Assembly: GCA_964016885.1 (NCBI GenBank)
Contig: OZ024742.1
Coordinates: forward strand, 77,562,001-77,626,000
Origin: Eledone cirrhosa
Taxonomy: Eukaryota
Direction of reading: 5' to 3'
DNA length: 64,000 bases
The notes under the pieces are model-generated. The model was not told where the DNA came from. It did no database searches and worked only from the letters and a program-made list of their open reading frames with translations. The first letter of the stretch is position 1; the number at the start of each line of letters is the position of its first letter. This document shows, piece after piece, positions 499 to 56,316 of this stretch. The position numbers and the translations under genes are program-made.

Positions 499-1220
<722 letters not shown>

Positions 1221-1230
1221 CATATATATA

Positions 1231-1298
<68 letters not shown>

Positions 1299-1301
<3 letters not shown>

Positions 1302-1467
1302 CGAAGGAAATGTGGTAAGGAACCAGGTGGACCATAACGCACCAAAGTACTCAATACTTGAGGTAGTAGAGTGGGTAATAGGAACCAGTAAGACCCCGAC
1401 AGCTGAGCTCAAGCCGTTTCGACCCGGTCGAAACGGCTTGAGCTCAGCTGTCGGGGTCTTACTGGTT

Positions 1468-1470
<3 letters not shown>
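1299..1470. mobile_element. 170-bp non-autonomous hairpin derivative of the PLE at 55108-61041
   Basis: 1300-1423 matches 58570-58693, then folds back (GCCGTTTCGACCCGGTCGAAACGGC). Both termini are the same as those of the 5.9-kb element. Flanked by (TA)n. Confidence 0.92.
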
Positions 1471-1512
<42 letters not shown>

Positions 1513-1516
<4 letters not shown>

Positions 1517-6678: not shown

Positions 6679-6778
6679 ACACACACACATACATACACTC
6701 ACACACATATTTATATAAGTATATATTGATATTTATATATATAAAGGTAAACTCCAGTGTAACAATCTTCATAAAGCA

Positions 6779-6836
<58 letters not shown>

Positions 6837-7192
6837 CTTTATGAAGATTGTTACACTGGAGTTTACCTTTCTTGGGAAATGTTCCTAAAACAGATCATGA
6901 CTCATCAGAGAAAATATGTCGCACATTAACATCAATTCAAGCGTCGTGAGTTATATTTGCTGTATACACTTGAGTGTGGGAATGATAGTGCTGCGTGACA
7001 CAAATGAAGCAAAGAAAATCTGGGAGATAGTAATGAGAAGGGACCAAAGGAAACAGGTAATCGAGGAAATAGACAAATTAATAAATTAACAAGGTAATAA
7101 ATCAAAACATTCGAATAACAACATGAATGGATCAAGCTATTTAGGATAACTTGTATATAGAGCACAATCTTACGGCTATCAATGCTTTAGAT

Positions 7193-9693: not shown

Positions 9694-9761
<68 letters not shown>

Positions 9762-9764
<3 letters not shown>

Positions 9765-9957
9765 ACCATATATATGGACCATAACGCACCAGATTACTCA
9801 ATACTTAGTGCAGTAGAGTGGGTAAACGGAAAAGAGTCAGGTAAAGAGTCTAGACCAGTAGTATTACGACAGCAGGGACCCAATACTACTGGTTTAGTTC
9901 GGATCTAGCGGTCGAGACGAACGGAGCTCGGCCGTCGGGGTCCTGGCTCTTTTCCTA
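9762..9957. mobile_element. Diverged hairpin relative of the 1299-1470 and 55-61 kb PLE termini
   Basis: GGACCATAACGCACCA..TACTCAATACT...GTAGAGTGGGTAA tail, GTCGGGGTC end, IR GGAAAAGAGTCAGG/CCTGGCTCTTTTCC and an internal hairpin; set in (TA)n. Confidence 0.75.
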
Positions 9958-53439: not shown

Positions 53440-53481
<42 letters not shown>

Positions 53482-53488
<7 letters not shown>

Positions 53489-53900
53489 ATTAAGTCAAAT
53501 ATTTAAAATTTGTCTTCGTTTATTAAAGATGTACTGCTATATATATATATATCGGTGACAGCCATCATTGGCTCTGACTTCTTCAGGCAGTCCGAATTGG
53601 TGGGTAGAGACAGGTACACATATTGTTGAAGTGTTTTTATTCCAGTCCTCAGAGAATAAAACACAACCAGGAGCTGGACGTATCGGAGTATTGGCTGAAT
53701 TCGGACTGCCTTGTGAGTTCACAGCCAATGATGGCTGTCACCGAAATATATATACCAGTACATCCTTAATAAACGAAGCCAAATTTAAAATATTTGACTT
53801 AATTATTTTATATTACTCCGGAGTAACCAAACCAACTTGCGTACTTCCCCGAGTGCTCAATCTGCATACTGAGGTGTTGGTAAACAACCAACATATAATC
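53482..53900. mobile_element. Fold-back element with a degenerate HHR in each arm and a right tail of about 90 nt
   Basis: 53482-53598 is an inverted repeat of 53697-53810. The consensus is ACTGC-CTGAAGA-..CAGCCAatgaTGGCTG..-GAAA-TATATA-TA-GCAGT. A relative of the tail lies at about 51265-51405. Confidence 0.78.
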
Positions 53901-54814: not shown

Positions 54815-55120
54815 AATGTGAATATAAGTACATGAGTGTATATAGAGAGTTATATAGATGTCTATCAATATATAGGTGTTTCCACATTTGCATATCTGTG
54901 TCTGTATGTGTATAAATACGCAATGTAAGTCACTCTTACATAGATTGTGTTCACATATATAGAAAACCAGAGACACAGGCCGACAAAGAGACACACTCAC
55001 AAGCACACACTCAGCCATATATATATATATGTGTGTTTGTGTCTATATATATATGGTTATATATGTATATATTTATATATATATATATATATGTAATATG
55101 TATATATAGGAACCAGTAAG

Positions 55121-55214
55121 ACCCCGACAGCTGAGCTCAAGCCGTTTCGACGGCTAATTCTGGACTAAATGAAAATTTATCCTGGTATTTAAATAGCCGA
55201 TCTTCTCAAGGGGT
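55121..55214 (-). ncRNA. Type-I hammerhead, U3-A8 variant (3' pLTR)
   Basis: ACCCC-TTGAGAA-GATCGGCTA...TAGCCGTC-GAAA-CGGCtTGAGCTCAGCTG-TC-GGGGT. Confidence 0.82.
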
Positions 55215-56316
55215 AATTCCATATATGGTCAAAGTGATTGTCAAAAATCAGTAGTAATTCTGTGGTTGCAAATTAGTAGGGGAGATGGTGGCTAAACCTG
55301 CCAGTAGAAGAAAGAGGGGAGGGGGTGGAGTAGACCCAATCAAGCGTTGGTAGTGCCAGCTACAGCTGGGCATGAGGTCAAAGAAGATACAGGGGAGGGG
55401 GAGGGGGAGGAAGTCGGAACGGTAGGTAGAACAATGGGGGGTAGAAATACGAAAGAAAAAATACTGAGAGTGAAGAAAAGCAAATAAGTGTAAAGAAAAA
55501 AGTAAGGTAAATTAAATTCTACGACCTAGGTGTCAGGCTATTGTTAGGCGAGAATAAAATAAAGAAAGAAAGGAAGAAGTAAATAAATAAATAAATAAAT
55601 AAATAAGGAAATAAGTAAGAGAACTAGGTGGGACGCATAAGGCAAGGACCCTTTTAAGAGGTATAAGTACGTAAATGATACGGTGACGGGTCAACAAAAG
55701 GGGCCAAAATACTAAAGAGACTACCACGAACTAAACAATAAAGGTTTCCATCCCGGGCCAGCAACGACCCAGTGCAGCAAAGTGAACTTGTACGAGATAA
55801 TAATTCTGAGTCCCGAGAAAAAAAAATATATATATACTAATGCTAACTCTAAAAGATCTAAAACAAGCTACATGAGAGTTCGTACGAAATAAAGGTAGAA
55901 TACGGAGAAATAAATTCAGAATCCACCCCGCCCAGAAGAAAAGCGAAGCAAGAAATACTGAAACGAAAAAATAAGGAATAAGTGCCACTAAGAAATATAG
56001 AGGGCACAGAGAATAGTGGGAGCGGTCGGAAAAAGGGGGAAAGTATCCGGGGTCTAAGCCAACTGCTATAAAGGGCGGAGTCCGCCAAATCTATCAAAGA
56101 CTAGGGGGGGGGGTACTAAGGCTACATGGGGCCAAAGGGCAGCCTCGGGTGGGCGAGAAAAGACGCCGACAAAGGAGAAGAGCTGGGGTAGAAGGACAAA
56201 GGAGAGAGGGGGGAAGGAAATAAAGGAAGCGATAAAAGAATACAAAGAAGATCTTACGTCTTCCTTGGCAAGCAGGGGTTACCCATTGCAAAATCGGCAA
56301 CTGGGGTGTTATAGCC

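Follow-up and report, generated by a model that had tools for sequence, protein, structure and literature searches.

Taken as a single locus, the hairpin mini-element at positions 1301-1469 of the window (the 64,000-nucleotide stretch of Eledone cirrhosa DNA analysed here) is individually ordinary debris: a one-off, dead-end insertion of a Hydra-clade Penelope-like retrotransposon (PLE). Taken together with the more than 20,000 insertions of its family, which are independent dead ends with fixed outer ends A and B and variable centres, it leads to a reading to which we give a probability of roughly 80%, namely that two primers copy one RNA until both cDNAs run off its 5' end, and that capped RNA, ribozyme-cut RNA and endless RNA would account for three classes of inner end. 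The DNA itself displays the fixed outer ends, the variable centre, the three inner-end classes, bases added in a position-specific manner and a pairing of end classes between arms.

The hairpin, about 170 bases long and set in (TA)n, was described in an earlier note as sharing both termini of a 5.9-kb PLE elsewhere in the window, and this is borne out: its long arm agrees with 58566-58694 at 99.2% identity across 129 bases and also matches 60916-61039, and its short end matches 55109. The termini given in that note, 55108 and 61041, designate the same ends but both count TA shared with the target, the element itself running from 55109 to 61039. Family positions refer here to the sense strand, with zero (site A) at the final C of the short end, which in the 5' pLTR is window position 58652; the long end (site B) lies at +80 (window 58572) and the ORF start at +174. 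The long arm copies the 80-base tail, site A and the 3' half of the ribozyme, and both arms do reach the base of stem II, as had been noticed, ending three bases past GAAA. The coordinates of these features are collected in Table 1.

Table 1. Features of the hairpin mini-element and of its parent element (positions in the window)
Feature	Position	Strand	Remarks
(TA)n target, left flank	1220..1300	.	
Hairpin, long arm	1301..1423	-	cDNA primed at site B (+80); ends at -42
Hairpin, central junction CCG	1424..1426	.	one non-native C per cDNA 3' end plus one base
Hairpin, short arm	1427..1469	+	cDNA primed at site A (0); ends at -42
(TA)n target, right flank	1470..1515	.	
Parent, left arm	55109..58803	-	starts at site A; 3,695 bases
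RT and C-terminal GIY-YIG ORF, Hydra clade	56317..58478	-	two frames, one frameshift near 57010-57045
80-base tail	58572..58651	-	between sites A (58652) and B (58572)
Type I hammerhead in 5' pLTR, U3-A8 core variant	58663..58758	-	predicted GUC cut between 58669 and 58668
Initiator-like T(T/C)AGT	58707..58711	-	loop II; putative main capped start at A 58709 (-57)
TATA-like box TATTTAAA	58731..58738	-	stem II/loop II border (-86); putative function
Parent, right arm	58804..61039	+	starts at site B; 2,236 bases; head-to-head with left arm
Hammerhead copy in right arm	60852..60946	+	G to A change right after the cut site

The parent element is made of two head-to-head arms, the left of which exceeds one 3,543-base unit and crosses the -57 site twice. 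Its ORF contains the motifs RWR, DKT, YRDD, CNCPVRSIC (CxCX5C), VIY...YIG (of the GIY-YIG type) and CNLC (CxxC), and its RT motifs, compared by eye, resemble those of Hydra-1_Obim; searches of Pfam and PDB with the parent protein gave no significant match. RWR/RWK, DKT, CxCX5C and CxxC, together with the (TA)n target and the absence of CCHH, are the features by which the Hydra clade is recognized. The ORF has CKD where that clade has CxH, and the unit is above the general Hydra-clade length; in PMC8557442, CxH is called possible and a length under 3 kb general. On its motifs, the parent is thus a Hydra-clade PLE of a family separate from Hydra-1_Obim, and it carries the marks of an EN+ PLE, that is, an ORF with RT and GIY-YIG, a pLTR with an inverted 5'-truncated partner and a one-sided tail, and a pLTR hammerhead. 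The 3' UTR of this family is unusually long, about 1.2 kb, and pyrimidine-rich with a (TTTA)n run (window 60041-60560 and 55480-55960).

A census of the 3.0-Gb genome relied on exact matches, and its counts are therefore lower bounds. It found 38,075 arms with the 22-mer at -42 to -21, 3,285 arms that reach -68, and 318 arms reading through site B towards the ORF. Exact ends followed by TATATA number 23,629 for the long end and 17,330 for the short end, with none in the reversed-pattern controls, and the outer end coincides with site A or site B in 29 of 30 unselected arms (read by eye). The suspicion that the outer endpoints recur and are not random is thereby confirmed. The sample for a closer look consisted of 98 B ends among the first 100 matches listed, all located in the initial 26.5 Mb of contig C1; an inverted A arm adjoins the B end in 65 of them, with a median size of 190 bases. 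Such a tail, offset between the two arms, is a known signature of two internal RT starts (PMC11167929).

Junctions varied among the 44 elements that were parsed, with five or more haplotypes represented, and fixed outer ends combined with varying junctions mean independent insertions. The count of same against variable junctions that had been suggested therefore comes out in favour of independent abortive insertions, the CCG junction of the hairpin itself occurring only once genome-wide. The alternative of an amplified MITE, or of a mini-element propagating itself, would account for the high copy number, the hairpin shape, TA flanks compatible with a TA duplication and a few recurrent junctions (three of them, at 3/44 each); most of the recurrent junctions examined, however, fit microhomology or the cap C discussed below. 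There is also no sign of transposase-type terminal inverted repeats, since one end has an 80-base unpaired tail and both ends are those of an RT element. The minis, in addition, have no TATA-like box, ribozyme 5' half or ORF start, and we see next to no chance for this explanation. The earlier view of the hairpin as retro-derived, independently inserted and only MITE-like is upheld. Nor does it qualify as a non-LTR retrozyme, defined in 10.64898/2026.07.22.740005 as a tandem in which every unit has a full type I hammerhead: the hairpin at 1301-1469 is not a tandem and contains just the 3' half of the ribozyme.

The inner ends tell a different story from the outer ones. It had been proposed that RT stalled at stem II in both arms, but among 163 arms only 4 end at -40 to -45, whereas 105 end at -48 to -63, 6-21 bases beyond the base of stem II and within loop II; in total 46 end earlier than this zone and 12 later, 5 of the latter at -66 to -69, probably through alignment overrun. 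The main stop is TTA/TCAGT, about 29 bases behind the TATA-like box. A stall of RT at RNA structure, either the stem II base or a weak predicted loop II hairpin (-73 to -53), on a longer or circular RNA, would be in line with the hairpin at 1301-1469, which itself stops at the stem II base, and with the overlap between the stop zone and the 3' strand of the loop II hairpin (-61 to -53). Evidence against it comes from cDNAs that cross the same sequence a second time. From the first 100 listed of the 318 read-throughs, 91 B read-through occurrences were obtained, 60 of which continue at least 1 kb into the ORF: 55 of these pass the zone, 5 stop before -48 and none stops at -48 to -63 (51 independent passes when arrays are counted once, p=6.5e-32), a result that a structural stall could not give. 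Moreover, the extra C found at the stops is position-specific, and the GTAC subfamily, in which the predicted loop II hairpin is altered, keeps the same loop II stops. Stalling is therefore very improbable.

The remaining 31 of the 91 are short read-throughs, mostly chimeras in which the cDNA jumped from one of the stops to +126 to +901 and then continued to a stop once more; 11 of them end at -48 to -60 and 7 at -14 to -19, and within a chimera both segments tend to fall into the same end class. Both the second passes and the jumps point to physical RNA ends. The stops occupy a stretch of about 12 bases, with a minority at -60/-61, upstream of -57 (2,057 matches, many of which are read-through of older subfamilies), so that more than one start, or else trimming, has to be assumed. 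The data do not support a collision between the B cDNA and the A complex, with 18 B ends in +1 to +66 and 18 in -1 to -47. The AG dinucleotides in loop II were also considered as splice sites, but this was ruled out, the junctions having no shared upstream exon. At one locus (L213/L214, G000:C1 near 27009640) three tandem segments each start from -60 and two end at +196, a pattern of repeated jumps on one short RNA that resembles a miniature rolling copy.

The bases added at the junctions differ between stops. Between an arm ending at -57 and a partner ending at -56, the single inserted base is C in 45, T in 3 and G in 2 cases (n=50, genome-wide). Among 5,607 matches at -57, the first 100 were counted by hand and gave 30 unexplained C, 3 T and at most 5 G, the other rows comprising 13 ambiguous C, 28 GAAT microhomology joints, 12 cases of subfamily read-through and 9 partner- or target-derived bases; the control at -53 gave 1/100. 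The extra C at the main stop recurs in the GTAC subfamily. Where both arms end at -16, the ribozyme cut, the insert is instead A/T in 55 and C/G in 14 cases (n=69; Fisher p=8e-15 against the -57 table), and 20 loci of this class are ordinary A/B hairpins with differing flanks and subfamilies. As an untemplated G is an accepted footprint of the m7G cap (PMC9341517 and PMC6280765), the extra G behind the main stop likely marks a capped RNA start at -57. Arms often end in GGAC-N-C, with a wrong base at -57 and C kept at -58 (about 13 GC and 5 AC per 100 rows), which may reflect misreading or misincorporation at the cap-adjacent nucleotide; the available part of 10.1101/648345 offers no support for such cap-adjacent misincorporation.

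Against this background, the inner breakpoint of the hairpin at 1301-1469 is atypical for its family. A BLAST search with the mini ranks hits by likeness and returned similar copies, but in unselected samples that class was rare. A C that is non-native on both arms at -42 occurs in 7 elements genome-wide, making the hairpin's class both rare and short. G precedes the 22-mer at -42 to -21 in 168 arms, about 12 of 30 such arms being point variants in read-through arms, and single arms at -42 have about 8 C against 5-6 T (hand count), no clear C excess. The both-arm control at -42 is dominated by a sister family (139 elements), with no true -42/-42 stop among the first 50. On balance we favour, with some reserve, the view that the hairpin, with both arms at -42 and C added to each, copies a transcript from a minor start at G-42; otherwise it would be made of two trimmed run-off products.

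When folded for minimum free energy (MFE), the pLTR takes the shape of a type I hammerhead; its core is U3-A8, its loop II counts 35 bases, and the predicted GUC cut falls between -17 and -16. The hammerhead is supported by conservation in 43 distinct copies and by arms that end at the predicted cut as well as by the fold itself; the unpaired core variant, C3 with A8, is present in 13 of the 43. A search against Rfam found no hammerhead, only AT-repeat noise. The labels TATA-like and initiator for the loop II motifs are ones we take from consensus motifs. The TATA-like box, which reads TATATAAA in one copy, sits about 29 bases before the putative start, and the arrangement suggests a Pol II promoter inside the ribozyme, with the box at -86 and the initiator in loop II at -57. 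With such a promoter, the capped mRNA would begin with only the 3' half of the ribozyme.

That the two cDNAs of a hairpin stem from one RNA is suggested by several kinds of agreement between arms. Subfamily haplotypes agree in 45 of 48 arm pairs, as compared with 12.3 after shuffling (maximum 24), but this could instead reflect subfamilies active at different times. More telling is the pairing of end classes, -16 with -16 and long with long, both counted by hand. Of roughly 64 truncations at -16, found with a search pattern that left out partners beginning with G or A, about 20 have a -16 partner, as compared with 2 in 300 rows anchored in the hot zone; and among the first 100 read-through arms listed, 55, belonging to 25 elements, have a read-through partner. 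Fold-back self-priming, in which one cDNA copies itself, as proposed in PMC3846280, would likewise yield arms that agree in sequence, and some centres are indeed perfect palindromes. Nevertheless, either arm can be the longer at the centre, the A arm outreaching B in L075, L192 and the parent at 55109-61039, which excludes fold-back copying; the tail is on one arm only, and the extra C stands on both arms around non-templated spacers. We hold fold-back to be extremely unlikely.

In the favoured reading, in which a single RNA receives two primers, the RT-endonuclease would bind the front of its own RNA and nick both strands of the (TA)n target, and the nicked strands would prime at sites A and B on that RNA. 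The enzyme is probably a dimer, like the one predicted for the Poseidon element PAc of Anolis. Both cDNAs would run off the RNA 5' end, and repair would join their 3' ends head-to-head. Capped mRNA, primed in cis near its front, would yield the minis of about 190 bases, most of all insertions, which are dead because the upstream part of the promoter, half of the ribozyme and the ORF are missing. RNA cut beforehand by the ribozyme (5' end at -16) would give shorter minis with A/T added and not C, and the long copies would derive from a template that does not end at -57, likely a ligated circle. The start site, the cap, the cleavage and the circle are in this scheme what we infer from the genomic copies.

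The need for a template with no -57 end follows from arms over one unit (window 55109-58803) and from arrays of four or more units, and the ribozyme-made circle, proposed tentatively in PMC4209133 as template for more-than-unit copies, appears to fit the long copies best. Alternatively, the minis could be cap run-off products and the long copies derive from uncleaved linear read-through RNA, made from host promoters or multi-unit arrays. Arrays of that size do exist, and PAc uses unprocessed RNA in vitro (PMC11167929); yet transcripts from the element's own start should then give full-length copies ending at -57 of the upstream pLTR, of which there are 0/60, and the ends at the cut site show that cleavage happens, which makes this linear route improbable. 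A retrovirus-like strong-stop transfer via the -57 to -17 overlap was rejected as a source of long copies, second passes never failing at -57. One tandem array (L220-L223, G000:C1:91473200-91493749) has at least four full units of 3,542-3,543 bases with an inverted partner, the units differing at 2-9 of 2,800 positions. A tentative extension, which we regard as doubtful, is that the loop II promoter would produce a capped mRNA with half a ribozyme, whose 3' pLTR half would clip the 41-base leader and turn the mRNA into a circle, the sole full-length template; the split fold is computed to be favourable (-23.4 kcal/mol, versus -12.1 for the leader alone). If this split-ribozyme switch were true, some 20,000 hairpins would form a fossil record of priming before the switch.

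Other hairpin elements are present in the window. At 9760-9955 lies a copy of the sister family, which shares the tail, the ribozyme 3' half and a conserved TTAGT; its hairpins number at least about 130 and are centred close to an AGATCT palindrome. At 22965-27499, a 310-base unit forms a head-to-head array in (TA)n, about 7.9 units one way and 6.8 the other; near 25443 on the + strand there is a small motif resembling a hammerhead, and a short tail offsets the ends. This array is a retrozyme-like element for which both target strands apparently primed on an endless template. Beside (TA)n at 16559-17077 and 53479-53813 lie asymmetric hairpin elements that belong to other families, and a short perfect inverted repeat at 6743-6870 surrounds a central (TA)n tract, the opposite arrangement to that of the minis. 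Hairpins such as those described here can be mis-annotated as MITEs.

Known systems share much of this architecture. The EN+ PLE unit Pen2a_Av (PMC3846280, PMC8557442) likewise has head-to-head arms, a tail at one end, partial tandems and an AT-rich target, but its tail measures 30-40 bases as compared with 80 here, where units are usually reduced to about 190 bases; in addition, the inner ends here map to the cap mark and the ribozyme cut, whereas PMC3846280 proposes self-priming on an antisense template. Hydra-1_Obim (PMC8557442) has in common with the present family RWR/RWK, DKT, CxCX5C, CxxC, the C-terminal GIY-YIG and the (TA)n target, from which the family differs by its 3,543-base unit, its 5' region and a U3-A8 ribozyme with a 35-base loop II. 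In PAc (PMC11167929), the tail results from two internal RT starts, cutting and extension take place on both strands, the template 5' end determines product length and a dimer is predicted, all as envisaged here. In vitro, cleavage was not needed for PAc and no reads began or ended at its cut, and the available part of that source gives no mapped start site or cap; in contrast, one class of copies here ends exactly at the ribozyme cut.

The pLTR hammerheads of PMC4209133 are alike in their type I motif, in U3-A8 covariation (Cercyon) and in opposite-strand pairs 100-700 bases apart; the genomic ends described here support the circle model indirectly, and the promoter here appears to lie within the ribozyme. 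Full-length L1 copies (PMC9341517) show an extra G at a pyrimidine/purine initiator that is also read as the cap, but there the mark sits on full-length copies, while here it sits on the shortest, which would follow from priming near the RNA front. Transcription starting within the pLTR is likewise known from the internal Penelope promoter (PMC2377424), and a plant retrozyme (PMC12029980) with a mapped start and a leader removed by the ribozyme offers a loose analogy only. Such hairpins are not described in the available part of PMC13282606. A literature search, conducted mostly below the level of full text and with the 2005 and 2006 reviews outside its scope, found no Penelope start mapped via the cap mark in genomic copies, none placed inside a hammerhead and no template classes read from junctions. 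The mechanism of PLE copying and the role of the hammerhead are stated to be open in PMC8557442 and PMC11167929, and dead copies here supply predictions to the single base, with the capped start placed at -57 and the cut at -16, a circle of 3,543 bases and two primers on one RNA. The architecture of two-arm tailed insertions is, then, already known, and the new part is the putative start within the ribozyme together with the template classes read from the junctions.
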